A program made the position numbers and the translations under genes. 64,000 bases of DNA from an uncultured Ruminococcus sp. (GTDB taxonomy: Bacteria; Bacillota; Clostridia; Oscillospirales; Ruminococcaceae). This document shows positions 5,299 to 60,857 of the stretch, in pieces (the stretch's first letter is position 1; each line of letters opens with the position of its first letter). The notes beneath the pieces are model-generated. The model was not told the DNA's origin. It worked only from the letters and a program-made list of their open reading frames with translations, and searched no databases. The stretch spans positions 1,900 through 65,899 of the forward strand of contig CAMWQI010000001.1 in NCBI GenBank assembly GCA_947176345.1. The letters run 5' to 3'.

Positions 5299-5331
5299 AA
5301 AAACCTCCTTTAAGAAATTAAGATTTTAAAA

Positions 5332-23148: not shown

Positions 23149-25212
23149 TCAGGATTTTGACCCTGATATTATACCATCAAGAATTTCATTATTCCACGAA
23201 AGATTATTCCTGTTGAAAAGTCCGAAACTTGACTCACCAGAAGATTTTCCGTTATCCCATACAAAGCACTTAATGCCATTAGCCTTTGCGGAGGATATAT
23301 AATAATTGTAATATTCATTTCTTGTGGCATTATCGGAGGCATTTACACAACCAAATTCACCTATAATAACCGGTGTTCCCTTATCAATGAATTTTTCTTT
23401 TAATTCAGAGAATTTGTTTGTTATTTCGGTTTTGCCGTCGTCCGTAAAAGTAATATCTATACCCTCAGAGAATTTCCATGGTGCATAGTAGTGTACGGAA
23501 ACTATAATATTTTTGTCATCGGGAATGGCTATATCATCTATAGCAGACGTTTCAGCGGAAGCCGCATATGATGTTATAACAAGAGTTCTGTTTGAATTAT
23601 TACCACCTGTGGAACGTACAGTATCTATGAAATCCTGTTCATACTTGTTAATTACGGCTCTTTCCTCCGGAGTACCACCTTGCCATTCAAGCTCACTGTC
23701 AATGGTACGTGGTTCATTCATGCCCTCAAATAAAAGCCTGTCACCGTAATCAATAAATCTTTCAGAAATCTGTTTCCATATAGCCTTAAGTTTTTCGCTG
23801 TCATGTTCGTATTCCTCTTCTGTCGGATTGAACCATATATAATCATCATGATGCATATTGAGAATTACGAACATATCATTATTGTATGCATAGTCAACGA
23901 CTTCTTGTACACGGTCAAGCCATTCTGTATTTATAATATTGTTGTCGTCCATGTGTTCGCCCCACGTTACAGGGATTCTTATTGCATTGAATCCGGAATT
24001 TTTCACGCCCATAATCATTTCTTCAGTAATTTTTGAATTTCCCCACGAAGTTTCAGTTGAAACTTTAGTGAAAGTATTGTCATAGCAATCAAGGGAATTG
24101 CCGATATTCCAGCCTACACTTATAGACTGTACAATCTGAGCAGGTGTCCGGAACTGTCCGTCAATTTCAGGTGCTACAGGGTCTTCATTGTCAAGTACGG
24201 TACTTTCAGTAGTAATAGGCTGTGTGCCGTTTCCGATACTGTATTTTACTTCAATTGAATCAAGTGTAATCTGTGGTTGTTCGCTCCACCAGTATCCCAG
24301 AAGTATTTCGCCGTTATCGGCAGAAAGATTTTTTGCTTTTTCCGGCACAAACCATGTCAGCGACAGACTGGAATTGTCTGTAAATAATGCCATGTCCGGT
24401 GATTGATACCGTCCGGCAGAAGATTTATAGCCGAAAGCTCCCGTGAATTTTCCCATACTGCCAGAGGAACTTATATTAAAAGTTACGGCTTGCGGAATGG
24501 TATTCTCCGGCATGAAATCAGCAGTTTTTATTTTCAGCATATTGTCGGCATCATTAAAGCCTATACTCTCACTGATTTCCGTTGATACAGTATCATCAAC
24601 AGGAATTTCCCGTGTACGTGTATAGGTGCATACTACATTTTCAATCTTTACACTGGAACAATTACCCCACCAGTAACCGAAAAGCACTTCACCGTCAGCA
24701 GATACTGCTTTGCTGACATCTGCCGGAACGTCCCATGTTATTTCACCGTAAGTTCCCTGTGTAGATACTGTAAAGTCCGGTGACTGATACCAGCCTTTGT
24801 CTTCTGAGGGATAGTCTTCCGTAACGGAAATACCACAACCACCTTTAAACTGTCCTATGTTCAGACCATCACCGGAATATATTATAAATGTAAATGATGA
24901 TATAATATCTCCGTCCTCTATAAATTCAGAAAGCGGGATTTTTATTGTATTCAGACCATCGGTTTTAGGAATAGTCTTGTCAACAGTATACTGTGAACCG
25001 CATTCCGCTGTAAGAGTTTCCGTCGGGCTTACATGAACGGTAGTGGGTTCAGCAGTAGTTTCAGTCGGAGTGTTTTTCTTTACGGATTTTGTATATGCCT
25101 GTGTGTTGAAAGTAGACTGTATATATTCGTTGGATTTACTGTTTTTTTCACAGGCTGTGAAAGTTGTTGTAATTGTTGCCACTGTGAAAAGGGCTGTTAT
25201 TTTTTTTATCAT
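23149..25212 (-). CDS. GH5 endoglucanase lipoprotein with two N-terminal copies of an uncharacterised module
   Basis: GH5 motifs NAIRIPVTW, VILNMHHD, FEGMNEPR, IIGEFG. Start moved to MIKKITALFTVATITTTFTAC (lipobox Cys, AAGGA RBS). No dockerin. Confidence 0.9.
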   Translation of the reverse strand: MIKKITALFTVATITTTFTACEKNSKSNEYIQSTFNTQAYTKSVKKNTPTETTAEPTTVHVSPTETLTAECGSQYTVDKTIPKTDGLNTIKIPLSEFIEDGDIISSFTFIIYSGDGLNIGQFKGGCGISVTEDYPSEDKGWYQSPDFTVSTQGTYGEITWDVPADVSKAVSADGEVLFGYWWGNCSSVKIENVVCTYTRTREIPVDDTVSTEISESIGFNDADNMLKIKTADFMPENTIPQAVTFNISSSGSMGKFTGAFGYKSSAGRYQSPDMALFTDNSSLSLTWFVPEKAKNLSADNGEILLGYWWSEQPQITLDSIEVKYSIGNGTQPITTESTVLDNEDPVAPEIDGQFRTPAQIVQSISVGWNIGNSLDCYDNTFTKVSTETSWGNSKITEEMIMGVKNSGFNAIRIPVTWGEHMDDNNIINTEWLDRVQEVVDYAYNNDMFVILNMHHDDYIWFNPTEEEYEHDSEKLKAIWKQISERFIDYGDRLLFEGMNEPRTIDSELEWQGGTPEERAVINKYEQDFIDTVRSTGGNNSNRTLVITSYAASAETSAIDDIAIPDDKNIIVSVHYYAPWKFSEGIDITFTDDGKTEITNKFSELKEKFIDKGTPVIIGEFGCVNASDNATRNEYYNYYISSAKANGIKCFVWDNGKSSGESSFGLFNRNNLSWNNEILDGIISGSKS

Positions 25213-25336
25213 GACAATATGTCCTTTCCGTTTTTTGTGTATATTTATAATTATTATAACATTATTTTCTGGAAATTTCAATATTATATTTTATTGTTTT
25301 AATTTTGCATTGGAATTTTTTTATATTTAAAAATAA

Positions 25337-25492: not shown

Positions 25493-25521
25493 TTGACAAA
25501 CGTAAAACTTCCTGCTATAAT
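25493..25521 (+). promoter_or_regulatory. Sigma-A promoter of the DUF2975/HTH operon
   Basis: TTGACA 25493-25498, 17 nt, TATAAT 25516-25521. Confidence 0.6.
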
Positions 25522-26602: not shown

Positions 26603-27436
26603 GTGATAATTATTAAACGTCTTTATATTACAGACCTTGACGGAACATTACTGAACAGCAAAGGTGAAGTTTCTGAAAATACCATTAAGAAAATTAATTC
26701 CCTGACAGAAAAGGGAATATATTTTACATTTGCAACGGCAAGGTCGGTATATTCAGCAAAGCCCATTACTGCCGGACTGAATATAAATATTCCATATATA
26801 CTCATGAACGGTGTGAGCATATATGACCCTGTTTGCAATACGTATATAAAAAATGAATACATAAATCCGGAAATTTCCGCACAGATAATAGAAGTTTTCA
26901 AGGAAAATAATCTGAAATGTTTCATGTACAGGATAGAAAATAATATACTTACAGCATATTTCACGGAGATTAATTCATATGTCATGAGGAGTTTTGCGGA
27001 GTCACGGAAAAATAACTATAACAAGCCGTTTGTGCAGTGCAGTGATTTGTTTGATATGGCTGATGATAAGACTGTTTACTTTACAGTGACCGGAGACTAT
27101 GAAAGACTTTTACCCGTAAAGAATGCCTTATCCGGCATAAGAGACATTGACTATGCTTTTTATCGTGATACTTATACAGGAAAATATTATCTTGAAATTT
27201 TTTCCGAAAACGCTTCAAAAGCAAATGGTATAAAGTATCTCCGGAATGAATACGAATTTGACGAGGTTATATGTTTCGGGGATAATCTAAATGACATAAA
27301 GATGTTTTCCGAATCAGATATAAAAATAGCTGTCGGAAATGCCGTGCCGGAACTTAAAGAAATGGCTGATTTTATCACGTTGGAAAATGACCGTGACGGT
27401 GTTGCAGAATGGCTCACTCAAAACTATAGGAGATAA
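26603..27436 (+). CDS. Cof-type HAD-IIB phosphatase
   Basis: ITDLDGTLL motif I, TFATARS, and GDNLNDIKMF motif IV. The only canonical start (GTG 26603) abuts GGAG with no spacing, so the true start may be a non-canonical ATT at 26612. Confidence 0.85.
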   Translation: MIIIKRLYITDLDGTLLNSKGEVSENTIKKINSLTEKGIYFTFATARSVYSAKPITAGLNINIPYILMNGVSIYDPVCNTYIKNEYINPEISAQIIEVFKENNLKCFMYRIENNILTAYFTEINSYVMRSFAESRKNNYNKPFVQCSDLFDMADDKTVYFTVTGDYERLLPVKNALSGIRDIDYAFYRDTYTGKYYLEIFSENASKANGIKYLRNEYEFDEVICFGDNLNDIKMFSESDIKIAVGNAVPELKEMADFITLENDRDGVAEWLTQNYRR

Positions 27437-27439
27437 TTT

Positions 27440-28156
27440 ATGGACTTTTCATATAAAAACGTTTACAACAGTAAAAAGCACAAAGAATTTATGGACAGTC
27501 AGCGATATGTCATAGATGATAAATTTCTTTCTGAAACGGAAATTTATGAGTTGTCAGACGGTTTTTCACTTGAAATCAGTACCTATGAGGAAGAAAAACA
27601 AAGTAAAGGTCATACAGTACGCATTTCTGCACAGAAATCAACTTTGAAAAATGCAGACAGTACAATATATGAATACTATTGTTTTTATGACCATACAAGA
27701 CCGTTTACAGAAATTATACATCATAAAAATGGTCACAGATATTATGCGTTTCATATTGACCTGTATGGAATAAGTTATCTTGACGTTGATACTTTGGAAG
27801 TATACCATTATATTCCGGAGGGCTATAAACACGAAGAAAAACATATGTGTGGAGAGAGTTTTATAATAACAGATATTCACTATGACGAAAAATCAAATCT
27901 TATTGCATACGGCGGTTGTTACTGGGCTACTCCTTATGGTGTAATGGTCGGGGATTTTTCAGACCCTCTTAATTTCAATCCGCACCTTGTAAGTCTGCTT
28001 GATATTTTAGGCTTCGGATATTATTTGTATGATGATGTTGATTTCAAGGAATGGAAAGACAATAAACTATATATTATGTGTGACAGTGAAGAAAAATCTT
28101 TGAGTGCTGAAGAAATCAGAAAATCAATAAACGAATTAACAGAAAGGAATTTATGA
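27440..28156 (+). CDS. Hypothetical protein, tandem paralog 1 (238 aa)
   Basis: Begins 3 nt after the HAD stop. Shares blocks IIHHKNGHRYY, LDVDTLEVYHYIPEGYKH, VMVGDFSxPLNFNPHLVSL and DFKEWKDNKLY with the next ORF. No signal peptide or TM. No family recognised. Confidence 0.75.
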   Translation: MDFSYKNVYNSKKHKEFMDSQRYVIDDKFLSETEIYELSDGFSLEISTYEEEKQSKGHTVRISAQKSTLKNADSTIYEYYCFYDHTRPFTEIIHHKNGHRYYAFHIDLYGISYLDVDTLEVYHYIPEGYKHEEKHMCGESFIITDIHYDEKSNLIAYGGCYWATPYGVMVGDFSDPLNFNPHLVSLLDILGFGYYLYDDVDFKEWKDNKLYIMCDSEEKSLSAEEIRKSINELTERNL

Positions 28157-28887
28157 CTAAATTTTCATATAAAAATATTTATGGCAGTAAAAAATATAAT
28201 GAATTTATTGAAAGACAGCGTTATGTGATAAATGATAATTATTTTTACCAAACTGGAAAATGTGAGTTATCAGACGGATTTTCAGTTGAATATACTATTT
28301 ACGATGACAAAGAACAGAAAGAAAAGGGTTTTAGCATTACAAAAGCTGTCGGAGCAAAAATAATTCTTAGAAATAAAAAAAGAAAAGTATATGAATATTA
28401 TCGTTTCAATAGTTATGCTTACGGATTTAATGATATTATCCACCATAAAAATGGTCACAGATATTATCCGTTTCATGTTTATATGTACGGAATAAGTTTT
28501 CTTGATGTTGACACTTTGGAAGTATACCATTATATTCCCGAGGGCTATAAACATAATGATGACCGTATATGCGGAGTGTCTTTTTATATATATGATGTTC
28601 ACTATGACAGAAAATCAAATCTTATTGCTTATTATGGCAGTCATGTAGGAATGGTTTATGATGTTATGGTAGGTGATTTTTCAGAACCTCTTAACTTCAA
28701 TCCGCATCTTGTAAGCCTATATGATATTTTTAATAATGAATATGATGAGTTTGATTTCAAGGAATGGAAAGACAATAAATTATATGTTATGTGCCACGAT
28801 GAAGAAAAATCTTTGAGTGTTGAAAAAACTTTGAGTATCGATGAACTCAAAACTCTTATAAATGAATTAATCACGAAAGGAAAATAA
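28153..28887 (+). CDS. Hypothetical protein, tandem paralog 2 (244 aa)
   Basis: ATGA overlap with paralog 1. Roughly half-identical by eye, with invariant blocks. Confidence 0.75.
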   Translation: MTKFSYKNIYGSKKYNEFIERQRYVINDNYFYQTGKCELSDGFSVEYTIYDDKEQKEKGFSITKAVGAKIILRNKKRKVYEYYRFNSYAYGFNDIIHHKNGHRYYPFHVYMYGISFLDVDTLEVYHYIPEGYKHNDDRICGVSFYIYDVHYDRKSNLIAYYGSHVGMVYDVMVGDFSEPLNFNPHLVSLYDIFNNEYDEFDFKEWKDNKLYVMCHDEEKSLSVEKTLSIDELKTLINELITKGK

Positions 28888-28889
28888 AA

Positions 28890-30620
28890 ATGAAAAAATT
28901 AATGTTAGGAAATGAAGCTTTTGCAAGAGGACTTTATGAGGCAGGATGCAGGATAGTATCAAGTTATCCTGGTACGCCGTCAACCGAAATTACAGAAGAA
29001 ATTGCTAAATATGATGAAGTTTATGCCGAATGGTCACCGAATGAAAAAGTAGCTCTGGAAGTTGCATTAGGTGCGTCAATAGCCGGTGCAAGAAGTTTCT
29101 GTGGTATGAAACACGTCGGTTTGAATGTAGCTGCTGACCCGTTATATACAGCGTCATACAGCGGAGTTAATGCCGGACTTGTTATAGCCGTTGCAGATGA
29201 CCAGGGTATGCACTCATCACAGAATGAACAGGACAGCAGACATCATGCTATAGCCTCAAAAGTTCCCATGCTTGAACCTTCCGACAGTGCAGAATGTAAG
29301 GATTTTGTAAAACTGGCGTTTGAAATTTCCGAAAATTTTGATACTCCGGTTATCGTGAGAATGTCAACCCGTGTGGCACATTCACAAAGTATAGTTGAGG
29401 CGTTGGAACGTCAGGAACTTGAGCTAAAAGAATACACCAAAAATCCACAGAAATATGTCATGATGCCGGCTTATGCAAAGGGAAGACACGTTTTTGTTGA
29501 GGAACGTACAAAAAAACTTACTGAATATGCTGAAACTTCACCACTGAACAGGGTTGAAATTTCCGAAAATGCAAAGTTTGGTGTAATAACCAACGGTGCG
29601 TGTTATCAGTATACTAAAGAGGCACTTGGAGACAAGGCATCTGTTTTAAAACTTGGTATGGTTAATCCAATGCCTGTTAAACTTATTCAGGACTTTGCAG
29701 AAAAATATGAAAAAATTTACATAATAGAAGAACTTGATGGCATTATTGAAAATCACTGTCGGAATATAGGTGTGAATAATATTCAGGGTAAGGAAATTTT
29801 CGGCTATATAGGAGAACTTCCGCAGTCTGTCATTGCTGAAAAACTTCTCAATGAAAAGAAAGATTATTCTGAATTTTCTGAAAATATTCCAATGAGACCG
29901 CCTGTTATGTGTGCAGGCTGTCCGCATCGTGGCTTGTTCTACTGTCTGAAAAAACTGGGTGTGACAGTTTCCGGAGATATAGGGTGCTATACACTGGGTG
30001 CGGTTGCACCACTCAACGCTATGGATACTACTATCTGTATGGGTGCATCAATATCGGCACTTCACGGATTTAATAAGGCACGTGGTTCGGAATCTGAACA
30101 CAAAAGTGTTGCAGTTATTGGAGACTCAACTTTCATGCACAGCGGAATGACCGGTCTTGTAAATATAGCCTATAATAATTCAAATTCGACTGTTATTATC
30201 CTTGACAACTCAATCACCGGCATGACGGGTCACCAGCAGAACCCCACAACCGGCAAGAACTTAAAAGGTGACCCTGCATATGCCGTAAATCTTGAGGAAC
30301 TCTGTAAATCTTTAGGCATAAAACGTGTTCGGGTGGTTGACCCTTATTGTCTTGCCGAAACTGAAAAAGCCATAAAAGAGGAACTTGTCTCAGATGAAGC
30401 ATCTGTAATTATATCACGCCGTCCGTGTGCATTGCTAAAATATGTCAAGCATAATCCGCCGTTTGCGGTTGACAGTGAAAAGTGCATAGGCTGTAAGGCT
30501 TGCATGAAGTTAGGCTGTCCGGCAATTTCAATCAAGGACAAAAAAGCTGTTATAGACCATACACAGTGCGTGGGTTGCGGTATATGTCAGGAACAGTGCA
30601 AATTTAATGCTATCAAATGA
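28890..30620 (+). CDS. iorA: Indolepyruvate:ferredoxin oxidoreductase alpha subunit
   Basis: 576 aa. N-terminus MLGNEAFARGLYEAG...SSYPGTPSTEI, TPP-binding GDSTFMHSG, and C-terminal 2x[4Fe-4S] motifs CIGCKAC...CP and CVGCGICQEQC. Confidence 0.9.
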   Translation: MKKLMLGNEAFARGLYEAGCRIVSSYPGTPSTEITEEIAKYDEVYAEWSPNEKVALEVALGASIAGARSFCGMKHVGLNVAADPLYTASYSGVNAGLVIAVADDQGMHSSQNEQDSRHHAIASKVPMLEPSDSAECKDFVKLAFEISENFDTPVIVRMSTRVAHSQSIVEALERQELELKEYTKNPQKYVMMPAYAKGRHVFVEERTKKLTEYAETSPLNRVEISENAKFGVITNGACYQYTKEALGDKASVLKLGMVNPMPVKLIQDFAEKYEKIYIIEELDGIIENHCRNIGVNNIQGKEIFGYIGELPQSVIAEKLLNEKKDYSEFSENIPMRPPVMCAGCPHRGLFYCLKKLGVTVSGDIGCYTLGAVAPLNAMDTTICMGASISALHGFNKARGSESEHKSVAVIGDSTFMHSGMTGLVNIAYNNSNSTVIILDNSITGMTGHQQNPTTGKNLKGDPAYAVNLEELCKSLGIKRVRVVDPYCLAETEKAIKEELVSDEASVIISRRPCALLKYVKHNPPFAVDSEKCIGCKACMKLGCPAISIKDKKAVIDHTQCVGCGICQEQCKFNAIK

Positions 30621-31129
30621 TGAACGGAAATATTATAGAGTTAAGTTATTCGTATTATTTTGGTGACAGTTCGCATTTTCTTATCTGGTATGAAGATGAG
30701 AATAACGAAAATCGTGTATATAATTCTGGCGGAAAGGTAATAAGTTTTTATTCGGATGAAACGGCACGGCAGAAAGCAGGAGAACTTAATATTAATATAA
30801 CAGATACCTGTTATTACGACGTGGAAAGGCTTATTTATTGGTTCTCAATGCACCAGAAAGAAATAGATTGTTGTTTTCTGATTGACTTCTGGAATATGTT
30901 TTCGGACATTGCGAACTCCGTCGGAAAAGAACTTGAACCCGTAAAAACAAGGCGTATTAACCGGTGTTATAATAAACTTTTCTGGGGACTTAATCTACCT
31001 GTCGTTACTCCGGAGGACTGCGAATATGAACCGATTTTCACGAAAAGGGAAAGAAAATTAATCAGGGAAATTATGCGTACTGGACTTGAAATCTTTGAAA
31101 AAAATTATGAATGGGAGAAAGATATATGA
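30617..31129 (+). CDS. Hypothetical protein (170 aa) inserted between iorA and iorB
   Basis: ATGA overlap with the iorA stop. Cytoplasmic, aromatic-rich, AT-rich coding sequence. No family recognised. Confidence 0.7.
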   Translation: MMNGNIIELSYSYYFGDSSHFLIWYEDENNENRVYNSGGKVISFYSDETARQKAGELNINITDTCYYDVERLIYWFSMHQKEIDCCFLIDFWNMFSDIANSVGKELEPVKTRRINRCYNKLFWGLNLPVVTPEDCEYEPIFTKRERKLIREIMRTGLEIFEKNYEWEKDI

Positions 31130-31515
31130 CTGAAAATTATGACGAAATTTACAGCAGTTTTAAAGAATGGCTTGACAATCTGCTTGAAAATAACGATATG
31201 CCGGCTGATACAAAGGCTTTTAACTTCAATCTCTATGATGAGGGAGACGAAGTTTTCAGCGTACAGCTTATAGCGTCGGATAGATTTGCCCCTGACGACG
31301 AAGACTGGGCTTGTTGTGAAATATGGTCATCGAAAGAAGATATTTTCTGTATAAGTGCTTCTGACGAGGAGGACAAGAGCGGTGAAACTTTTCAAAATTT
31401 TGTATCTGATATGGTTATAGATTATATTGCAAAAAGCGATATTCTCAGCAGTGTGCCTGTCGGCATAGGATTTGTTGACGGAGATTTAAATATTATCTTC
31501 ATACCTGAAAATTAA
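31126..31515 (+). CDS. Hypothetical acidic protein (129 aa) inserted between iorA and iorB
   Basis: The ATG at 31126 follows GGGAGAAAG and makes an ATGA overlap with the preceding stop. Sequence MTENYDEIYSSFKEWLDNLLENNDMP... No family recognised. Confidence 0.7.
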   Translation: MTENYDEIYSSFKEWLDNLLENNDMPADTKAFNFNLYDEGDEVFSVQLIASDRFAPDDEDWACCEIWSSKEDIFCISASDEEDKSGETFQNFVSDMVIDYIAKSDILSSVPVGIGFVDGDLNIIFIPEN

Positions 31516-31528
31516 GGAGTTTTATTAT

Positions 31529-32104
31529 ATGGAAACAAAATCAATTATGATAGTCGGCGTGGGCGGACAAGGTTCATTGCTTGCATCAAGAATTATAGGA
31601 AATGTACTTCTTTCACAGGGGTACGATGTTAAAGTAAGCGAAGTACATGGAATGTCACAGCGTGGGGGTTCTGTCGTAACGTATGTAAAATATGGTGAAA
31701 AAGTCTATTCACCGATTGTTGAAAAGGGTGAGGCGGATATAATTATATCTTTTGAAATGCTTGAATCAGCAAGAGCCTTGCCGTATCTCAAAAAAGGCGG
31801 ACACCTGATAACGTCTGTCCAAAGGATAGACCCCATGCCCGTTATAACTGGTATGGCTGAATATCCGGAAAATATCGTTGAAAAACTTACCGGAGCAGGT
31901 GCGGACGTTACGGCGGTTGACGCCTTAAGTCTTGCGGAACAGGCAGGAACTTCAAAGGCATCAAATGTTGTACTTATGGGTGTGCTTGCATCAAAGATGG
32001 ATTTTCCGGAAGAAGTTTGGCAGAATGCACTTGAAAAGTGTGTACCACCTAAATTCCTTGAACTCAATAAAAAGGCTTTTGCACTTGGTTTGCAGAATGT
32101 ATGA
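31529..32104 (+). CDS. iorB: Indolepyruvate:ferredoxin oxidoreductase beta subunit
   Basis: 191 aa. IMIVGVGGQGSLLASRIIG motif typical of the IorB/gamma-type subunit. TAAGGAG RBS. Confidence 0.9.
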   Translation: METKSIMIVGVGGQGSLLASRIIGNVLLSQGYDVKVSEVHGMSQRGGSVVTYVKYGEKVYSPIVEKGEADIIISFEMLESARALPYLKKGGHLITSVQRIDPMPVITGMAEYPENIVEKLTGAGADVTAVDALSLAEQAGTSKASNVVLMGVLASKMDFPEEVWQNALEKCVPPKFLELNKKAFALGLQNV

Positions 32105-32571
32105 TTACACCTTTTGATAGTATTATAGCATTGGAAATCATTGACATGATAAACAATATTTCATACAGTGAGATTATTATTTCTGTCACACAGCAATGCT
32201 TTACTGATAATACTTTCAGAGCTGATACTGTCTTTGAAATCAGTTCCGCTTATGAATTGTGGGTTTATGCCTGTATATATGATGATATTTTGAATAATAA
32301 TGATTATTCGACTTACTGTTCATACAACGGAGAGGGTTATTCTGACGAATATATTTCAGCCCGTTTGCTTATGAAATGCGAACTTCTTACGGGAACATCA
32401 GTTTATAATATTCAGGAAATTATCCCGAATATAGTTAAATCCCTTGAATATATGATGGGAATTGAATGTCATTCTGAGCTTATGGAATATATGAAATCAA
32501 AGAATATTGAAGAAGAATTTAAAAGTACTGTAATTAATTTACAGAATAATCTAAAAAAACGTATAAAATAA
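32101..32571 (+). CDS. Hypothetical protein (156 aa) inserted between iorB and paaK
   Basis: ATGA overlap with the iorB stop. Cytoplasmic, acidic. No family recognised. Confidence 0.7.
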   Translation: MITPFDSIIALEIIDMINNISYSEIIISVTQQCFTDNTFRADTVFEISSAYELWVYACIYDDILNNNDYSTYCSYNGEGYSDEYISARLLMKCELLTGTSVYNIQEIIPNIVKSLEYMMGIECHSELMEYMKSKNIEEEFKSTVINLQNNLKKRIK

Positions 32572-32590
32572 AAGGAGGTCTTTTTTAGCA

Positions 32591-33892
32591 ATGGAAAGAT
32601 ACTGGAATGGAGAAATTGAATGTATGTCCCGTGAGAACATGAAGAAGTTACAGGACGAAAGACTTGTGGCACAGGTAAAGCACGTCTATGAAAATGTGCC
32701 TTATTACCGCAATCTTATGGACGAAAAGGGTGTAACTCCGGACGATATAAAGTCCACAGAGGATTTGCATAAACTGCCGTTTTTAAGTAAGGCTGATTTG
32801 CGTGATGCTTACCCATACGGACTTCTTGCAAAACCCTTGTCCGAATGTGTGAGAATACAGTCCACAAGCGGTACAACCGGCAGACGTGTTGTAGCATTCT
32901 ATACACAGCACGATATTGATTTATGGGAAGACTGCTGTGCAAGAGCCATTACAGCGGCTGGCGGTACTAATGAAGATGTATGTCAGGTGTGCTATGGTTA
33001 CGGACTTTTCACGGGTGGTCCTGGACTGAATGGCGGTTCACATAAAGTAGGCTGTCTCACACTGCCCATGTCGTCGGGAAATACCGAAAGACAGATACAA
33101 TTCATGCGTGATTTAGGCTCAACAATTCTGTGCTGTACACCGTCATATGCCGCATATATCGGAGAAACTCTCCATGATATGGGCTTTACTCCCGACGATA
33201 TAAAGCTGAAAGCCGGCATTTTCGGTGCTGAACCATGGACAGAAGAAATGCGACGTTCTATTGAAAAATCTTTAGGCATAAAGGCTTATGATATTTACGG
33301 ACTTACCGAAACAAGCGGTCCTGGTGTATCGTTTGAGTGTTCCGAACAGACAGGTATGCACATAAATGAAGACCATTTTATTCCCGAAATAATAAATCCT
33401 GAAACTGAAGAAGTTTTACCGGACGGCGAAGTGGGCGAACTTGTTTTCACAAGTATAACTAAAGAGGCATTCCCACTCTTGAGATACAGAACACGTGATT
33501 TATGCGTACTCTCACGGAAAAAGTGTTCATGCGGACGTACTCTTATTAAGATGTCGAAACCAATGGGCAGAAGTGATGATATGCTTATTATCAGGGGTGT
33601 TAATGTTTTTCCCAGCCAGATAGAAACAGTCCTTATTGAACAGGGCTATACACCAAACTATCTTATAGAGGTTGACCGTGTGAATAATTCCGATACTCTT
33701 GATATAAGCGTTGAAATGAATCCAGAACAGATTTCCGACAATGATATTCAGGACAAGGAAAGAAAACTTGCCGGAGCTATCAGGACTATGTTAGGAATAA
33801 GCCCGAAAGTACATCTTGTTCCGCCTAAATCTATCACAAGAAGTGAGGGAAAGGCTGTACGTGTTATTGATAAGCGGAAATTACACGACTAA
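32591..33892 (+). CDS. paaK: Phenylacetate-CoA ligase
   Basis: 433 aa. MERYWNGEIECMSRENMKKLQDERL, STSGTTGRRVV (AMP-binding P-loop), YGLTETSGPGV and RYRTRD motifs. Confidence 0.9.
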   Translation: MERYWNGEIECMSRENMKKLQDERLVAQVKHVYENVPYYRNLMDEKGVTPDDIKSTEDLHKLPFLSKADLRDAYPYGLLAKPLSECVRIQSTSGTTGRRVVAFYTQHDIDLWEDCCARAITAAGGTNEDVCQVCYGYGLFTGGPGLNGGSHKVGCLTLPMSSGNTERQIQFMRDLGSTILCCTPSYAAYIGETLHDMGFTPDDIKLKAGIFGAEPWTEEMRRSIEKSLGIKAYDIYGLTETSGPGVSFECSEQTGMHINEDHFIPEIINPETEEVLPDGEVGELVFTSITKEAFPLLRYRTRDLCVLSRKKCSCGRTLIKMSKPMGRSDDMLIIRGVNVFPSQIETVLIEQGYTPNYLIEVDRVNNSDTLDISVEMNPEQISDNDIQDKERKLAGAIRTMLGISPKVHLVPPKSITRSEGKAVRVIDKRKLHD

Positions 33893-33904
33893 GAGAGATT
33901 TATT

Positions 33905-34681
33905 GTGAAAGTAAAATTATTTTCGTCGAAAACAATTAATACTATTATTCCTTTATTAGCTGTTATGATGTTTTTTTTGGAGGGCTGTTCGTTTCTCAAA
34001 CTTAAAAAAGATGAATATCCAGATTATAATTCAGAGCTTGCAAAAGAAGTGATATTGTCATATCTTACTGAAAAATACGATAAAGAGTTCTCAATAATTA
34101 ATGAGCCAAAAAAAATGACAGATACAATTCTTTTCGGAAATGTTTGGTATACATATGAAATTATGGTGAAAGATGACAAGAATAATGAAAATTCAGATAT
34201 ATATGAAGTTCATGTTGAATATGAAAATGGAGAATACAATGTTTTAGGTGATACATTTTTAAATTATTATTACGAAAAATTATTTCATGAATATACAGAC
34301 CCTATTATAGCAGACTGCATGGGAGAAATACCCTATTTTACCATTTTTGTTTCAGCAACAACAAATGAGAAAGATTTTGCTCCAACAGAAAAAATTCCAG
34401 AAAGCAAGAATGATTTATCAAATTGTTTTAGCAATATAAATTTTCATATACTGATTCCACAAACTTATGATAATGATAAAATACCATCAATATGTAGTTC
34501 TTTGTATACAGCACTTGAAAATGAATATTTCAATGTCTTTATGGGTAGGGTAACGATATATTCAGATGATAACTTTAATGATATTGTTTCGGCTGAAAAT
34601 CCATATAGTGTTTATATTGAAAAGCCATGGTTGAATTCTTATAATATTGAACTTCGGAGGTGTTTTTATGGAAAATCCTAA
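33905..34681 (+). CDS. Hypothetical lipoprotein (258 aa)
   Basis: GTG start 12 nt after the paaK stop. Signal peptide with lipobox FFLEGC. AT-rich. No family recognised. Confidence 0.65.
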   Translation: MKVKLFSSKTINTIIPLLAVMMFFLEGCSFLKLKKDEYPDYNSELAKEVILSYLTEKYDKEFSIINEPKKMTDTILFGNVWYTYEIMVKDDKNNENSDIYEVHVEYENGEYNVLGDTFLNYYYEKLFHEYTDPIIADCMGEIPYFTIFVSATTNEKDFAPTEKIPESKNDLSNCFSNINFHILIPQTYDNDKIPSICSSLYTALENEYFNVFMGRVTIYSDDNFNDIVSAENPYSVYIEKPWLNSYNIELRRCFYGKS

Positions 34682-35381
34682 CAAATCAAGTATGGAAATA
34701 ACCCTTACCGACACAAAACCGTCAATTTTTGAAAGTAAAGTCGGTGGTATAGGCTATATTCCGCATGACAAAAATTTCCCGACAGACAGCAACGGCAATC
34801 AGTTGAGACTTCTTGCACAGATAGACTGTTCAGAAATTCAGCTTGATGAGTTTCCGAAAAAGGGACTTTTGCAGTTCTGGCTTGCCGGTGATGACCTTTA
34901 TGGTTGTGACTTTGATAATCCTACAAAACAGGACGATTTCAGGGTGATATACTATCCGGAAATCGATACAACAGTTACAGAGGAAGAAATAAAAAGCAAG
35001 TTTGTACATAATGAAACAGATGATGACGATTTTTACACACCGGTATGTTCTGAATGTGGTATGAGTTTTGAGCCGTCCGAAGACCGATATATTGACTATG
35101 ACGCTATCGAAGAAGATTATGATGAAGAAGAAGACTCATATGACGACGAAAGATGGACGGAAAATTTCTATTCCAAAGTCGGCGGTTATCCAACATTCAC
35201 ACAGTACGAACCACGAAACGAAGAACAGCAGGAAAAATATGATTTTCTCTTACTCCAGCTTGATTCAAAATGGGAAAAAATTCTGTGGGGCGATATGGGT
35301 ATAGGCAACTTCTTTATCAGTTCTGAAAAACTTAAAAAGTGTGATTTCAGCGACGTTCTCTATAACTGGGATTGCGGTTAA
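34668..35381 (+). CDS. DUF1963 / YwqG-family protein
   Basis: The ATG at 34668 follows CGGAGGTG and overlaps the upstream ORF by 14 nt. Contains SKVGGIGYIP...LLAQIDC...LLQFW...SKVGGYPTFTQ...WGDMGIGNFFIS, the typical DUF1963 pattern as I remember it. Confidence 0.8.
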   Translation: MENPNKSSMEITLTDTKPSIFESKVGGIGYIPHDKNFPTDSNGNQLRLLAQIDCSEIQLDEFPKKGLLQFWLAGDDLYGCDFDNPTKQDDFRVIYYPEIDTTVTEEEIKSKFVHNETDDDDFYTPVCSECGMSFEPSEDRYIDYDAIEEDYDEEEDSYDDERWTENFYSKVGGYPTFTQYEPRNEEQQEKYDFLLLQLDSKWEKILWGDMGIGNFFISSEKLKKCDFSDVLYNWDCG

Positions 35382-35479
35382 TCCGGAGCAGGTATTATTC
35401 AGCTTACCGAAAATGACATTGCAGAAATGTGACAAATGCACAAATAACTTTATGTTTTATGAAAATTTTCTGAAAACAC

Positions 35480-35509
35480 TTGACAAAGTATGTAGTTATA
35501 GTGTATAAT
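35480..35509 (+). promoter_or_regulatory. Putative sigma-A promoter
   Basis: TTGACA 35480-35485, 18-nt spacer ending in TG, TATAAT 35504-35509. Confidence 0.5.
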
Positions 35510-40625: not shown

Positions 40626-42464
40626 ATGGACATAAAAATAATTACAATGTCGGTTATTGTCGGATTAAGTACTGTTACGGCTATCGGCATGAATACAACA
40701 GAAAATTTTAATACAATGGCTGAAAATAATGTTGGCTGGACTCTTGGTGACGTGAACAATGACGGCTGGGTTAATGCTGTGGACTCATCTATTGTACTTA
40801 TGGAATATTCAAATCTTTCAACACATGGTGGAACTTTCACTGAAGAACAGAAAAAAGTTGCCGACGTAAACGGCGATGGCTGGATTAATGCTGTAGATGC
40901 GTCAAATATCCTTTCATATTATGCATATTGTTCCACTGGAGGTACTATTTCTTTTTCAGAATGGATGAAAAATCCGGAAGAAATCACTACAACTACTACC
41001 ACTATAGCAACAACTGTTACGACATCTACAACCGTTTCAGGTTATGTAGTATCTACTGATAATTCGTCATCTTCAACACAAACTACATCTACTGTATCGT
41101 CAGTTGAAACAACAACTACTACAACTTCAACAGTGCAGAAAATCTCTGAAATAAAACTTACAAAATACGATATTAACCTTAAAGTCGGGGAAAAAGATAT
41201 ATCATATGTCACAATGTTACCTGAAAGTGTAGCCAATAAGGACGAAATATGGACAAGTTCCGACGAAAAAGTAGCTACAGTAGATAAGTGGGGAAATATT
41301 ACCGGAATAGCAGACGGTAAGTGTATAGTTACAGTCACAAGCGTTGACAATCCGGAAGTAAAAGCTGATATAAAGGTTACTGTCGGAGAACCCTCCACAG
41401 AAAACAAGATAACTGAAATAAAACTTTCAAAAACTGAAATGAATTTGGAAGTCGGAAAAAAAGATATATCATATGTCACCATGATTCCCGACAATGTAGA
41501 AAATAAAGATGAAATCTGGACAAGTTCAGATGAAAAGATTGCTACAGTGGATAGGTGGGGAAATGTTACAGCAGTTTCAGACGGCACTTGCACTATTACA
41601 GTAACAAGTGTTGATAATCCGAAAGTAAAAGCTGATATAAAGGTTACTGTCGGCAAACCGTCCACCACGGAAAACAAGATAACTGAAATAAAACTTTCAA
41701 AAACTGAAATGAATTTAAACATAGGCGAAAAAGATATATCATACGTTACTATGCTCCCCGAAAGTGTAGCAAATAAAGATGAAATATGGACAAGTTCCGA
41801 TGAAAAAATAGCTACAGTCGATAAGTGGGGAAATGTTACAGCTGTTTCAGCCGGTACTTGTACTGTTACTGTCACAAGCGTTGATAATTCGGAAGTAAAA
41901 GCCGATATAAAAGTTACTATCAAGGAAAAATCAGATTTTCAGCAGTTAAACGGTCTTACATATATAAACGGTATTCTCATAGCGAATAAAAGTTATTCTC
42001 TACCGTCAACATATGACCCTGGAATGGACATTACCACTATAAAGCAGTTTGGTGAACTTTCCAACGCTGCTGCAAAAGACGGCATAAATATATATCTTTC
42101 GTCGGGTTACCGTTCATATTCGTATCAGAATACAATTTACAATAATTATGTTTCATGGTACGGAAAAGCTTCAGCAGATACTTTTTCAGCACGTGCCGGA
42201 CATTCTGAACATCAGACGGGACTTGCAATAGACGTGAACACAATTGATGATTCATTCGCAGATACTCCGGAGGCTGAATGGCTTGAAAAACACGCCCATG
42301 AATACGGTTTTATAATCCGTTATCCGAAAGGCAAGGAAAGTATTACCGGATATAAGTATGAGCCATGGCATATACGCTATTTAGGCGTGGAAAAGGCTAC
42401 TGATGTATATAATAGTGGTCTTACTTTAGAAGAATATTTAGGCATTGATTCATATTATCATTAA
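40626..42464 (+). CDS. Secreted protein: N-terminal dockerin, Thr/Ser linker, 3x Big_2-like Ig repeats, C-terminal VanY/M15B D-Ala-D-Ala carboxypeptidase
   Basis: Signal peptide. Dockerin repeats GDVNNDGWVNAVDSS and DVNGDGWINAVDAS. Three 90-aa repeats. VanY motifs SGYRSYSYQ, HSEHQTGLAIDV, EPWHIRYLG. Confidence 0.85.
   Translation: MDIKIITMSVIVGLSTVTAIGMNTTENFNTMAENNVGWTLGDVNNDGWVNAVDSSIVLMEYSNLSTHGGTFTEEQKKVADVNGDGWINAVDASNILSYYAYCSTGGTISFSEWMKNPEEITTTTTTIATTVTTSTTVSGYVVSTDNSSSSTQTTSTVSSVETTTTTTSTVQKISEIKLTKYDINLKVGEKDISYVTMLPESVANKDEIWTSSDEKVATVDKWGNITGIADGKCIVTVTSVDNPEVKADIKVTVGEPSTENKITEIKLSKTEMNLEVGKKDISYVTMIPDNVENKDEIWTSSDEKIATVDRWGNVTAVSDGTCTITVTSVDNPKVKADIKVTVGKPSTTENKITEIKLSKTEMNLNIGEKDISYVTMLPESVANKDEIWTSSDEKIATVDKWGNVTAVSAGTCTVTVTSVDNSEVKADIKVTIKEKSDFQQLNGLTYINGILIANKSYSLPSTYDPGMDITTIKQFGELSNAAAKDGINIYLSSGYRSYSYQNTIYNNYVSWYGKASADTFSARAGHSEHQTGLAIDVNTIDDSFADTPEAEWLEKHAHEYGFIIRYPKGKESITGYKYEPWHIRYLGVEKATDVYNSGLTLEEYLGIDSYYH
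41133..41930 (+). repeat. Three tandem 270-bp coding repeats (Ig-like modules)
   Basis: Repeat units start at 41133, 41403 and 41673 (period exactly 270 bp). There are long stretches of near-identical DNA, e.g. AACAAGATAACTGAAATAAAACTTTCAAAAACTGAAATGAATTT in units 2 and 3. Confidence 0.9.
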
Positions 42465-47617: not shown

Positions 47618-49765
47618 TTATACAAATTTTTCATTTAACTGTTCAGTTGTAACAGGGAAATCAGTCTGTTTAATAAGGTTGATGCCTATAACCTGAATAG
47701 CGAGTGCATCCGTAGCGGTTACACCGTCGCCGTTATCAACAACATCGGCATTCAGCTTGCCCTGTTCAGACAATTTATAATCGTTCGGATTTGACAATGT
47801 CTGCATGATAAATACAGCATCGGAAACATTTACCTGATTATCTACATTTGCATCGCCCCACATTGTAACGCTAAGTGTGGTAGGTTCAATAGTAGTAGTT
47901 GTTGTTGTTGTGGGTTCAGTTGTTGTTGTCGTTGTGGTAGTAGTCGTTGATGTAGTTGTGGTTGTTGATGATGTAGTTCTGGTAGTAGTAGTTGAAGTGG
48001 TAGTTGTTGTTTGAACATCATAATAAACTTCAACATTATCAATGGAGATAGCATCAGCCTCACCATAGTAGTAGCCGAAGTAAACTTCACCTGTCGGGTC
48101 AACAAAGTTAGTCTTGCTGTCAACTCCGGCGGCTGCTGTCGGGATTATCCACATAATTTCAGCCTTGTCACCGGCTTCAAGAACACAGTAGTCACCGTTT
48201 TCCTGATACCAGTATTCCTGTTCTGTATTGGCATCAGCAGTAACACTTGTTCCAGTATTGTAAACGAGCTTATCAACGTCGGATTTTGCAGAAATGTCAA
48301 AGCGGATTGCATAAACGTCCATAGTTTCGTCAATGCCTAAATCTTCATATGACATATGGAGTGCGTTTTTATCTTTGTTGGCGTGTTCAAGCATTTCGCC
48401 TACTTTTTTGCTGATTGATGCAGTATAAGGTACAGTAACTTCCTTTGTATATGTGAGAACAGCACCAGTAAGATTTACAGTTTCAGCGATTTCAGGTTCT
48501 GTAGTATCTTCAGATTGTTCAGCCTTAGTGCCATACCAGTACTGGAATGAAATTTCATCCTCAACTTTAGTATTGGTGTATGGCTGTACTTCAGCCGGAA
48601 CTTCCCAGTAAGCCTTGATATAAGTTCCTGCACCGGTCATTGTTGCGCCACCAGATGGGGTTATTTCAAACTTTACTCCAGCGTCTATAAATTCTTTTAC
48701 CTGGTCTTCGCCACAGTCATTGTACCAGTAACCAGCAGTTTCCTTGCCCTCTATTCCTGCCAATTTCTTAGCATATTCTGTATCAGCCGGAGAACCCTGT
48801 TTAACGTTCAGACCGCCACCATACATGAATGTATCAACAGCCTCATCAGTTTCAATAATAGCTGTAAGAGACTCAATAGTAACGCCGTCCATATCGGTTA
48901 TGCCGAAATCAGAATATTTGAATTTATGGCTGTTAATCGGGTCGCCCTCTTCGGGTGTTTTTCCCTGTGATGCATAAGTATCTTCATCAAAGCCCTGTGT
49001 AAGAACAATCGGCTCTTCAAATGAAACCTGTCTTGCAACAGTTGAACGGATAGTAGCAGTGCCGTCGCCGTTATCCTTGAAAGACCAGTTATCACCATTA
49101 GTGGTCTTGTTGTTATGCGGAACATTTTCAACAGGTTTATCAGGATTATCGGGCTTATCCGGATTATCCGGCTTATCGGGCTTTTCCGGTACAACGACAG
49201 TTCCGTTAGCCTCAACTTTATCTACAGTGATTGAACCTTTTGTCTCACCTGCGTAGTAGTTTCTAAATTCAAATTTTCCGGGGTATTCGCTGGTTTTAGC
49301 GTCATACTTGAGGTCGAGTTTTGAAAGGTCAAAACCTATTGTGACAGGTTCACCGGCTGTACAAGCTATTTCAGTAGCATTAACATCAATTTTACCGCCC
49401 TTTGAGTCAATAAAGCCTTTTACAGAGTCATATTCAAGCCAGTATGGGTCTTTGGTAATGCCAATACCGAAACCGCATGAAAAATTACCAGTGAAATCAG
49501 GAGTGAAAGTTATATTTACAGTTTTAAGACCGCTTTTAGCCAAATCAGCAGTGTAGCCGACATACTTATCGCCCACGCCTATGCCTTTGCCGAGTTCTTC
49601 AATTTCAGCTTCTGCTTTTTTATTGGCAGTTATACTGATAACAGGTGATGCCACATTTACAGCTCCGGCAGAAATTGACACCATAGCAGCCGGCACACAT
49701 GATGCAGTCATAACAAAACTCATCATAGATGCCTTTAAACGTCTGGAAAAGTTTCTTTTCTTCAT
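47618..49765 (-). CDS. Secreted dockerin-containing protein of unknown function with three copies of an uncharacterised module
   Basis: Signal peptide. (PDK/PDN)n and poly-Thr linkers. C-terminal dockerin (GDANVDNQVNVSDA... and DVVDNGDGVTATDA...). The modules end in a GE[IV]xFGY[WY][WY]-type motif shared with the GH5 protein. Confidence 0.85.
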   Translation of the reverse strand: MKKRNFSRRLKASMMSFVMTASCVPAAMVSISAGAVNVASPVISITANKKAEAEIEELGKGIGVGDKYVGYTADLAKSGLKTVNITFTPDFTGNFSCGFGIGITKDPYWLEYDSVKGFIDSKGGKIDVNATEIACTAGEPVTIGFDLSKLDLKYDAKTSEYPGKFEFRNYYAGETKGSITVDKVEANGTVVVPEKPDKPDNPDKPDNPDKPVENVPHNNKTTNGDNWSFKDNGDGTATIRSTVARQVSFEEPIVLTQGFDEDTYASQGKTPEEGDPINSHKFKYSDFGITDMDGVTIESLTAIIETDEAVDTFMYGGGLNVKQGSPADTEYAKKLAGIEGKETAGYWYNDCGEDQVKEFIDAGVKFEITPSGGATMTGAGTYIKAYWEVPAEVQPYTNTKVEDEISFQYWYGTKAEQSEDTTEPEIAETVNLTGAVLTYTKEVTVPYTASISKKVGEMLEHANKDKNALHMSYEDLGIDETMDVYAIRFDISAKSDVDKLVYNTGTSVTADANTEQEYWYQENGDYCVLEAGDKAEIMWIIPTAAAGVDSKTNFVDPTGEVYFGYYYGEADAISIDNVEVYYDVQTTTTTSTTTTRTTSSTTTTTSTTTTTTTTTTEPTTTTTTTIEPTTLSVTMWGDANVDNQVNVSDAVFIMQTLSNPNDYKLSEQGKLNADVVDNGDGVTATDALAIQVIGINLIKQTDFPVTTEQLNEKFV

Positions 49766-58246: not shown

Positions 58247-58861
58247 ATGCTTTATACTTTGGAAAAGGGACTTGTAAGGCTTGTAATGAGTATAGCTTTT
58301 AATCTGCATTTTGAGGGCAGGGAAAATATTCCGAAAGATACAACGGTAATATTTGCCTCCAATCACCGCACCAATGCCGACCCACCATTTGTGGGCTGTG
58401 CATTGCGTGGAAAACACGCTTTTATGGCTAAGGAAGAATTATTCAGAAATAAATTTTTCGGGGCTTTGATACGCAGTGTAGGGGCTTTTCCAGTATCTCG
58501 TGGAAAAGGCGATACAGCAGTTATTGATAAATCTGTTGAAGCACTCAACAATAACAGAAGTCTTATGATTTTTCCGGAGGGTACACGTTCCAAAGACGGT
58601 AAAGTACATAAGGGTCATTCAGGTGCGGCACTTATTGCGGCACGCTCCGGAAAACCTATAGTTCCGGTAGGAATAGTTTTTGGTGAAAAACTTAAATTCC
58701 GCACAAAAGTTACTGTAAAATACGGCAAACCAATAAATCCGGCTGATTATTGTGAGATATGCGACACACCTAATCCACGACAGATTGTTAAACTTAAAAA
58801 TCGTTATATGGCTGATATAAAATTACTTGCTGAAGGAGAACCGGAGGCGAAAAATGAGTAA
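58247..58861 (+). CDS. plsC: 1-acyl-sn-glycerol-3-phosphate acyltransferase
   Basis: NHRTNADP (HX4D variant) and FPEGTRS motifs. The ATG at 58247 follows AGGTGA. Confidence 0.88.
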   Translation: MLYTLEKGLVRLVMSIAFNLHFEGRENIPKDTTVIFASNHRTNADPPFVGCALRGKHAFMAKEELFRNKFFGALIRSVGAFPVSRGKGDTAVIDKSVEALNNNRSLMIFPEGTRSKDGKVHKGHSGAALIAARSGKPIVPVGIVFGEKLKFRTKVTVKYGKPINPADYCEICDTPNPRQIVKLKNRYMADIKLLAEGEPEAKNE

Positions 58862-60788: not shown

Positions 60789-60808
60789 TTATTCATTCTG
60801 ACAAACAA

Positions 60809-60841
60809 GGGACTGTGCATTACTGTGCAGTTCCTTTTTTT
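60809..60841 (+). terminator. Intrinsic terminator after ispH-S1
   Basis: 11-bp stem GGGACTGTGCA/TGTGCAGTTCC (with G-U pairs), 4-nt loop, T7 run. Confidence 0.7.
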
Positions 60842-60857
60842 AGAAAGCAGGTTCTTT

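Follow-up and report, generated by a model that had tools for sequence, protein, structure and literature searches.

Passenger genes, one of them from a superfamily linked to toxin immunity, are interleaved with the indolepyruvate:ferredoxin oxidoreductase operon in a clade of Ruminococcus

Gut Bacteroidales carry orphan immunity clusters, also described as acquired interbacterial defence clusters, which lie on mobile elements with recombinases and target the effectors of type VI secretion systems. Small unrelated immunity genes can also be arrayed in polyimmunity loci, and immunity domains can be joined in polyimmunity proteins, both being concepts of Zhang et al. 2012 (PMC3482391). In Clostridia, the genes for the two subunits of indolepyruvate:ferredoxin oxidoreductase (IOR), iorA and iorB, and a phenylacetate-CoA ligase gene, paaK, form the canonical operon iorA-iorB-paaK(-ACT). 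Here, we describe a locus that shares traits with all of these. It lies in a 64,000-nt (nucleotide) stretch of DNA from an uncultured Ruminococcus sp. (contig CAMWQI010000001.1; hereafter, the window, whose positions serve as coordinates), where three small open reading frames (ORFs), O1, O2 and O3, are interleaved with iorA, iorB and paaK. We show that, in the clade to which this genome belongs, enzyme and passenger genes form a stable mosaic in the ior operon that is inherited vertically, and that O2 belongs to an uncatalogued superfamily which is tied repeatedly, both physically and by genomic context, to the immunity modules of polymorphic toxins. The core of the locus is made up as follows.

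28890-30620, + strand: iorA, IOR alpha subunit (TIGR03336, 729 bits against a cutoff of 651)
30617/30620-31129, + strand: O1, orphan ORF of 169-170 residues between iorA and O2
31126-31515, + strand: O2, very acidic ORF of 129 residues between O1 and iorB
31529-32104, + strand: iorB, IOR beta subunit, intact (NF005325, 278 bits against a cutoff of 230)
32101-32571, + strand: O3, orphan ORF of 156 residues that overlaps the iorB stop by 4 nt (ATGA)
32591-33892, + strand: PaaK-like phenylacetate-CoA ligase (full-length TIGR02155 match of 525 bits, below the equivalog cutoff of 646)

Enzymes and enzyme order are those of the canonical operon, and the enzyme genes are intact and under strong purifying selection. 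A first-pass annotation, made from the sequence alone, had called both IOR subunits intact and had placed ORFs of 170, 129 and 156 residues at these positions, and both points are borne out: IorA (residues 1-575 aligned to positions 1-595 of the TIGR03336 model) and IorB are full length and exceed their NCBIfam equivalog cutoffs and have the TPP and 2x[4Fe-4S] domains, with matches to PF02775, PF01855 and two Fer4 domains. Its naming of paaK holds as far as the full-length match goes, which makes the ligase a member of the family, but not for the score; the ligase also matches PF14535 and PF00501.

The comparison loci (denoted L with a number) stem from 80 species-level genomes fetched with IorA as the query (68-89% identity) and from six further loci reached by exact-protein look-ups, with IorA identities from 89% (L084) to 99% (L097). 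In nearly all of the 45 loci in which IorA is at most about 72% identical (68-72%), the genes abut in the canonical manner, with an iorA-iorB gap of 10-60 nt and iorB directly followed by paaK. By contrast, iorA and iorB in the window are 908 nt apart, a distance filled by O1 and O2, so that by gene order the two are not adjacent, and the ACT gene has been lost. O2 stands between iorA and iorB in all 20 lineages of the clade that were examined (19 loci and the window), in which IorA identity is 82% or more. Each locus has a single copy, and neither the flanks nor the window contain another. No relative with IorA at or below 78% has O2, and every taxon examined outside the clade lacks O1, O2 and O3 alike. 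The minimal operon of the clade is HAD-iorA-O2-iorB-paaK-(72-residue gene)-(ACT)-DZR. On this backbone, about twelve other passenger families form a mosaic of presence and absence, each being limited to one junction, and each clade operon holds one to seven extra genes (seven in L001). Passengers were found at five junctions.

HAD/iorA: the paralogues parA' and parB'
iorA/O2: O1
O2/iorB: a protein family with two transmembrane segments; a 104-residue family
iorB/paaK: O3; a protein with four transmembrane segments; a 503-residue lipoprotein; a PepSY-like lipoprotein
After paaK: the 72-residue gene; a lipoprotein; DUF1963; a 115-residue gene; ACT

The parA' and parB' genes occur only in the window, L097, L098, L081, L001 and L002, the lipoprotein gene that follows paaK only in the window, L097 and L098, and DUF1963 as an operon gene only in the window, L097, L098 and L081. 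The sister clade (IorA 73-78%) has no O2, yet other genes are inserted at the same two junctions, namely, the fluoride channel gene crcB between iorA and iorB (L017:12427-12816; L019) and an HD-domain gene between iorB and paaK (L017:13420-13917; L019; L024); thus, the same junctions take quite different genes. As the interleaved order recurs in more than 20 independent assemblies, it is no assembly artefact. The idea that the small ORFs are spurious, or that the arrangement is a chimera of metagenome assembly, has nothing in its favour beyond missing database annotation and is refuted by this recurrence, by ratios of nonsynonymous to synonymous substitution rates (dN/dS) well below 1, by hundreds of full-length homologues and by the confident structural model of O2; we give it practically no credence.

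Two observations on the comparison loci concern the junctions themselves. In L081 (5117-6004), the iorB frame bears an in-frame N-terminal extension of 104 residues, which in L001 (4894-5160) is a separate small gene family; the extension reflects either a fusion of the two genes or the loss of a stop codon. Between iorA and O1, a spacer of 127-143 nt is found in L097 (4246-4374), L098 (2637-2781) and also L081, the IorA proteins of which are 94-99% identical to that of the window, and is missing in the window (at 30620) and in L084. This spacer folds as a long hairpin (14-bp perfect stem, z = -2.7) and could be an internal regulatory or processing site; it is not a repeated element, no further copies being present in the window or the other loci.

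The passengers turn over in two ways: in-frame deletions remove them but leave start and stop contexts in place, and recombination exchanges them. In L081 (IorA 94%; GCA_965316505.1, 4520-4712), O1 is reduced to a scar of 13 codons, in which the first seven codons (MNGSIIE) are joined in frame to the last six (KNYERE, then the stop), with the start and the stop/overlap context kept. This scar is preceded by some 150 nt of AT-rich sequence that contains inverted repeats (TGATGTATGAT...ATCATACATCA). In the window and L097, the lipoprotein gene opens, in frame, with the first eight codons (MKVKLFSS) of the 72-residue gene (window 33905-33930), and L098 has both genes, separate. A 115-residue gene of L097 (9157-9504) is missing in the window despite 99% identity, and both loci retain a 14-codon ACT remnant. 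Nucleotide identity between the window and L097 is 0.97-1.0 except in the 5' half of O1 (0.84) and at the 5' end of parA' (0.87), and the synonymous divergence (dS) of O1 is 0.24 against 0.04-0.07 for the backbone. Against L098, the tract around O3 (approximately 31850-32600) has a dS of 0 and 98-100% nucleotide identity, with a backbone dS of 0.38-0.51, which indicates a recent recombinational transfer or sweep between the two lineages. There are no cassette-flanking or attC-like repeats in the string of genes at 26603-35381 to which the operon belongs, the sole repeats being the parA'/parB' duplication, and no integrase, transposase or recombinase. The locus accordingly lacks the marks of integron-type gene cassettes, and we rejected an integron-like or transposon-like mechanism, homologous recombination in the conserved enzyme genes being the likely vehicle.

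Against L097, L098 and L081, dN/dS is 0.03-0.14 for the enzymes (iorA 0.04-0.06, iorB 0.06-0.11), 0.22-0.25 for O1, 0.18-0.31 for O2, 0.48 for O3 and 0.11-0.44 for parA'/parB'; O1, O2 and O3 are genuine genes under purifying selection, and the passengers have the look of genes that are expressed. O2 has diverged about as far as the HAD gene (mean identity 60% versus 53%), and its pairwise identities correlate with those of IorA (r = 0.48) much as those of PaaK do (r = 0.45).

O2 has more than 207 homologue clusters. In an alignment of 63 homologues, 22 columns are invariant; the motifs are FxxWLDxLLENNxMP, AFNFNLYE, DWACxExWSSEEDIF and GIGFVDGD, and there is a conserved, clade-specific acidic patch (WSSEEDIF...SDE). 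The AlphaFold model has an alpha-beta4-alpha-beta2 fold (predicted local distance difference test, pLDDT, 87.7; predicted template-modelling score, pTM, 0.82). Foldseek searches with this model gave nothing significant in the PDB (best E 0.15, TM-score < 0.4) or in BFVD (best viral E 0.011, TM-score 0.44); profile searches for PDB sequence relatives returned designed TIM barrels, set aside as spurious, and a phage origin of O2 was discarded, as tblastn gave no match in 50,697 phage records. None of O1, O2 and O3 matches Pfam or NCBIfam at E < 1, including the curated Imm, SUKH and SuFu families, or gives a significant match in PADLOC or PHROGs, and these four databases hold no match for parA'/parB' or the lipoprotein either. 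The first-pass annotation had foreseen that matches of the three inserts to well-known families would rob them of interest, and no such match was found.

An exhaustive profile search with O2 gathered 697 representative clusters (50% identity) at E <= 1e-3, 322 of them at E <= 1e-10. They span Firmicutes, Bacteroidota and Proteobacteria, are called hypothetical wherever an annotation was seen, and share the signature F..W...A..FNLYE...L.G..FD..D.DWAC.E...W...Y...GFVDGD. Most members are stand-alone proteins of 115-150 residues, and the O2 of the window has a single domain. Among 20 multidomain members scanned, Imm11 is the partner in five and DUF1963 in two (one of them with TPR), and DUF4241, ankyrin, SUKH-1 (weak) and DUF3298 each occur in one. 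Fusions of Imm domains are the polyimmunity proteins of Zhang et al. 2012 (PMC3482391), where Imm11 is listed with AHH, HNH and SHH nuclease toxins.

A scan of metagenomes with a two-motif DNA pattern recovered 97 true O2-like loci in 60 clusters (GC 0.33-0.67), always with a single copy of the gene. In a Pfam census of 123 same-strand neighbours, 118 families were recorded, PT-HINT being the most recurrent besides the IorA domains. L134 (OGQR01002905.1, 1500-8600), a complete and typical polymorphic-toxin locus, has a PT-HINT+Ntox21 toxin gene followed by three orphan PT-HINT cassettes, each before small genes, and the O2-like gene (6008-6361) takes the immunity slot after the cassette at 5164-5565; in L113, the order is PT-HINT+AHH, Imm11, O2-like gene. 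The O2 of the window is 36% identical to the L134 member (E 7e-20) and 33% to that of L113 (E 3e-21). The small downstream genes of L134 have no match in Pfam, and several of them are candidates for new immunity families. A superfamily gene also lies just downstream of mobQ on pYAN-1 of Sphingobium yanoikuyae (L222; NC_008246.1, 4791-5177), a mobilisable plasmid of 5.2 kb that also carries a RelE/ParE-CopG pair, so that the family also moves on small plasmids in Proteobacteria.

The last gene of the string at 26603-35381 encodes a DUF1963 (TYPP, YwqG) protein. A DUF1963 gene is next to an O2-like gene in L126 (1013-2216) and near one in L174; as fusion partner or neighbour of the O2 domain, DUF1963 is seen in unrelated bacteria (P0258, P0277, L126), and in the window it follows O2 at about 3 kb. 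This recurrent association may be a functional pairing. A protein-binding, chaperone-like role has been proposed for DUF1963/TYPP, and ankyrin fusions have been reported (Burroughs and Aravind 2014, PMC4275035); the fusion or adjacency with the O2 superfamily found here does not figure in the passages of that paper returned by term searches.

O1 and O3 are of narrower distribution. The homologues of O1 fall into 27 clusters (72-89% identity), exclusively from Ruminococcus, to which L001 adds a more distant one of 37% identity, and the gene is confined to the junction of iorA and O2; its model (pLDDT 72) has a disordered loop at 112-139, and a weak fold match to the SatS C-domain (E 6e-3, TM-score about 0.5) was not relied on. 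For O3, there are seven homologue clusters and, in L002, a homologue of 29-36% identity; this gene lies without exception between iorB and paaK and has an invariant N-terminus (MITPF). An hhalign probability of 0.2 marks O1 and O2 as unrelated, and BLAST clustering links none of O1, O2 and O3, as the first-pass annotation had judged by eye.

How do these passengers compare with the described immunity systems? As in polyimmunity loci, the passengers are small, structurally unrelated genes on one strand, tightly spaced and probably in one transcript, and the gene content varies between close strains; and as in polyimmunity proteins, the O2 domain is fused to Imm11, to ankyrin and, weakly, to SUKH, with one member in a PT-HINT cassette array. 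Unlike in polyimmunity loci, the passengers form no dedicated array but are interleaved singly or in twos among metabolic enzyme subunit genes, there is no adjoining recombinase or toxin, O2 is fixed in the clade rather than variable between strains, some passengers are clearly unrelated to immunity, and the O2 family lies outside the curated Imm families. Half of the string are enzyme genes, and only O2 and DUF1963 have immunity-type associations, so the string is not a heterogeneous polyimmunity locus. The Bacteroidales clusters, too, are a case of gut bacteria keeping immunity genes without cognate toxins and exchanging them between lineages; the genes described here, however, are chromosomal and embedded in an operon of Gram-positive hosts, and probably spread via homologous recombination in the flanking enzyme genes.

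The reading that we favour, and which in our estimate stands about an even chance of being right, is that the operon is a long-standing harbour for co-transcribed passengers, at least some of which belong to the immunity or protein-binding type. As members of the O2 superfamily sit in the ior operon here and in toxin-immunity loci elsewhere, a housekeeping operon can carry such genes long-term. O2, a small acidic alpha/beta protein, would most likely bind an incoming toxin stoichiometrically and so neutralise it, as an orphan immunity protein does, and its acidity, together with the company of Imm11 and AHH, hints, speculatively, at a basic toxin, possibly a nuclease. The DUF1963 protein would belong to the same association network, whereas for O1, O3, the two paralogues and the lipoprotein, all of them clade-restricted orphans, the same general kind is a guess.

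Several results weigh against this reading. There is no toxin gene in the window, and a polymorphic toxin is nearby in only two of the 60 non-redundant metagenome loci (L134 and L113). In all ten genome or plasmid contexts inspected singly, the O2-like gene stands alone and in the direction of its neighbours, which are housekeeping or hypothetical genes, and it often overlaps the stop codon of the gene before it; it was seen after ADI, between RimK genes, and after NUDIX, ParA-like, epimerase and topoisomerase genes. Universal retention, the acidic patch and a dN/dS of 0.2-0.3 would suit a stable conserved partner at least equally well. The CrcB and HD-domain passengers of relatives are plainly not immunity proteins, and DUF1963 is described in PMC4275035 as a chaperone-like protein-binding domain and not as an immunity protein. 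Nothing ties O1 or O3 to an immunity function, and jackhmmer searches of 220 fetched loci with O1, O3, the two paralogues and the remaining passengers gave no member outside the ior operon. The first-pass annotation had proposed that orphan immunity-like cassettes were inserted into a metabolic operon; this stands at the family level for O2, through the fusions to Imm11 and others and the toxin arrays, but O1 and O3 come without immunity evidence, and O2 is no recent or strain-specific insert, since it is fixed at the exact junction in every lineage of the clade. To regard all passengers as immunity genes is likewise too narrow, given the proteins with two or four transmembrane segments, lipoproteins, CrcB and HD protein of the relatives.

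The retention of O2 also bears on the other proposal of the first-pass annotation, that the inserts are accessory proteins of the pathway. In its more specific form, O2 would be a domesticated, clade-specific partner of IOR. It could serve as a small accessory subunit, as a factor for assembly or protection, or as a regulator, and the position of its gene between iorA and iorB would keep its synthesis in step with theirs; O1 and O3 might modulate the pathway in a lineage-specific manner. O2 is a single-copy gene at the exact junction in 20 out of 20 lineages and never lost, whereas each of the other passengers is missing from some lineage; selection on O2 is purifying, its codon composition is native, its 22 invariant columns include the acidic patch, and its identities track those of IorA about as closely as those of PaaK do. 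O1 and O3, moreover, are each limited to their own junction. On the other hand, all IOR operons with IorA at or below 78% do without O2; IorA has its ferredoxin domain and IorB is gamma-like, so no known IOR component is missing; and the O2 superfamily occurs elsewhere in varied contexts and fused to Imm11 or DUF1963, which argues against an intrinsic link to IOR. O1 and O3 are missing from close relatives whose enzymes are intact, which argues against an essential role in the pathway. The proposal is thereby weakened for O1 and O3, as it is by the taxa outside the clade that lack all three inserts, and it is not refuted for O2; on balance, we judge such a partnership unlikely.

Bolder versions of these ideas take two forms. 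In one, O2 would have been an immunity-type binding protein that entered the operon between iorA and iorB when the clade arose and was then domesticated as a stoichiometric IOR partner, which might shield or regulate an oxygen- and toxin-sensitive oxidoreductase. In the other, the operon would be a distributed polyimmunity locus, with interbacterial defence genes tied on purpose to the transcription of an essential pathway for aromatic amino acids. That either holds seems to us unlikely.

The diversity of the passengers raises another explanation, in which they have no common function and the junctions of a constitutively transcribed operon in compact genomes are permissive landing sites, with vertical inheritance and random loss thereafter. 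The passengers are indeed heterogeneous, ranging from proteins with two or four transmembrane segments, lipoproteins, CrcB and the HD protein to cytoplasmic acidic orphans; the sister clade has different genes at the same two junctions; the string is free of attC-like repeats, integrase and transposase; and, in the same window, a DUF1810 gene and a 180-residue orphan are appended after an ispH-rpsA fusion gene. Such a neutral account fits poorly with the purifying selection on every passenger tested and with the keeping of O2 by every lineage. Furthermore, the association of O2, DUF1963 and Imm11 recurs as fusions and neighbours in unrelated bacteria and hence is not random, and the recent spread of the O3 tract across lineages that differ by a dS of about 0.4 suggests selection. 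We regard this explanation as rather unlikely.

For the favoured reading, of an operon that harbours passengers, the sequence suggests a mechanism. The HAD-iorA-iorB-paaK operon of this genus-level clade of cellulolytic Ruminococcus would harbour promoter-less passengers at five fixed junctions, the whole string at 26603-35381 probably being read as a single transcript. The first-pass annotation had noted start/stop overlaps of the ATGA type at three junctions, and ATGA is found at 30617, 31126 and 32101; at the first of these, however, O1 homologues open with MNGNIIEL, so that O1 probably starts at ATG 30620 and overlaps the iorA stop by one base (TGATG). Overlaps of the small ORFs thus range from 1 to 4 nt, and as 4-nt overlaps occur in 8 of 42 same-strand pairs in this genome, they are by themselves unremarkable. 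iorB (AAGGAG) and paaK (AAGGAGG) keep their own strong Shine-Dalgarno sites, which would leave enzyme synthesis undisturbed. No Shine-Dalgarno sequence precedes O1 or O3, which, overlapping the preceding stop, are probably translated via termination-reinitiation; O2, with a GGGAG site and a 4-nt overlap with O1, would be the oldest passenger, fixed clade-wide. The passengers would then evolve under relaxed purifying selection, be lost by in-frame deletion and pass from one lineage to another through homologous recombination in the conserved enzyme genes on either side.

In composition, the inserts only partly stand apart. They are acidic and aromatic-rich, as the first-pass annotation had held (D+E 15-24%; F+W+Y 11.5-16%, compared with 6-7% aromatic residues in the enzymes). 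Its statement that they are more AT-rich applies to O3 (GC 0.29; GC at third codon positions, GC3, 0.26), which is an outlier from the window gene mean of 0.385 +/- 0.036 together with parB' (0.28) and the lipoprotein gene (0.27), but not to O1 (0.35) and O2 (0.37), which are within one standard deviation of that mean and whose GC3 of 0.35 equals that of iorA and iorB.

The string as a whole comprises eleven same-strand ORFs between 26603 and 35381, with junction gaps of -14 to +19 nt; all ten junctions are at most 19 nt, and there is no convincing terminator inside, so the tightly packed string of the first-pass annotation is confirmed. Its remaining genes and the neighbouring sites are the following.

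26603-27436, + strand: Cof-type HAD-IIB phosphatase gene (PF08282, E 7e-56; TIGR00099, 173 bits)
27440-28156, + strand: parA', cytoplasmic orphan paralogue, 57% identical to parB', without a family match
28153-28887, + strand: parB', cytoplasmic orphan paralogue, variable passenger at the HAD/iorA junction
33905-34681, + strand: predicted lipoprotein passenger (signal/transmembrane segment at residues 10-33, then Cys)
34647-35381, + strand: DUF1963 (TYPP/YwqG-family) gene, variable passenger (PF09234, E 1.6e-59)
35391-35432, + strand: 3' remnant, fourteen codons, of an ACT-domain gene (by alignment to L097 and to the ACT gene of L081)
25493-25521, + strand: perfect sigma-70-like promoter consensus (12/12 matches), upstream of the string
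35480-35509: second perfect sigma-70-like consensus (12/12 matches), past the string end

The HAD gene, first of the string, lies upstream of iorA throughout the clade in the synteny matrix, and the DUF1963 protein is a full-length member of its family (residues 30-243 aligned to PF09234 positions 1-216). The ACT gene, of which the window retains only the remnant, follows paaK in most relatives. Perfect promoter consensus sites, judged by consensus matches alone, occur only outside the string. An Rfam scan of the whole window found no RNA family and, hence, no riboswitch or T-box leader. Elsewhere in the window, at 58827-61807, a DUF1810 gene (60825-61268) and a 180-residue acidic orphan (61265-61807), which overlaps the DUF1810 gene by 4 nt, come after an ispH (LytB)-S1 (rpsA) fusion gene, all in one direction, so that here, likewise, orphans are appended to a housekeeping gene. 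The window also encodes cellulosome-type proteins, namely, a GH5 cellulase with DUF5620 repeats (23149-25281, - strand), a protein with dockerin, Big_2 and VanY carboxypeptidase domains (40626-42464, + strand) and a DUF5620/mucin-like protein (47618-49765, - strand), which identify the host as a cellulolytic, cellulosomal Ruminococcus; the homologues carry the names Ruminococcus sp. or R. flavefaciens.

Neither orphan immunity genes nor polyimmunity loci nor canonical ior-paaK operons are new in themselves, and a literature search gave no description of interleaved ior operons. What is new is the O2 superfamily, which lies outside Pfam, NCBIfam and the PDB, with its habit of single residence in housekeeping operons, and the clade-wide fixed insertion between two enzyme subunit genes amid turnover-prone passengers. 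Widespread, uncatalogued and with a confident predicted fold, the superfamily is a target for structural and toxin-neutralisation work. Immunity-type genes can reside singly in housekeeping operons long-term, where island- or neighbourhood-based surveys of gut and rumen defence would miss them. The locus is, in addition, a clean natural case of operon remodelling, with in-frame scars and cassette exchange via conserved flanks. Through the IOR/PaaK route, Ruminococcus makes aromatic amino acids from phenylacetate and indoleacetate, and extra proteins coupled to the ior-paaK operon could affect a growth-limiting pathway in the rumen.

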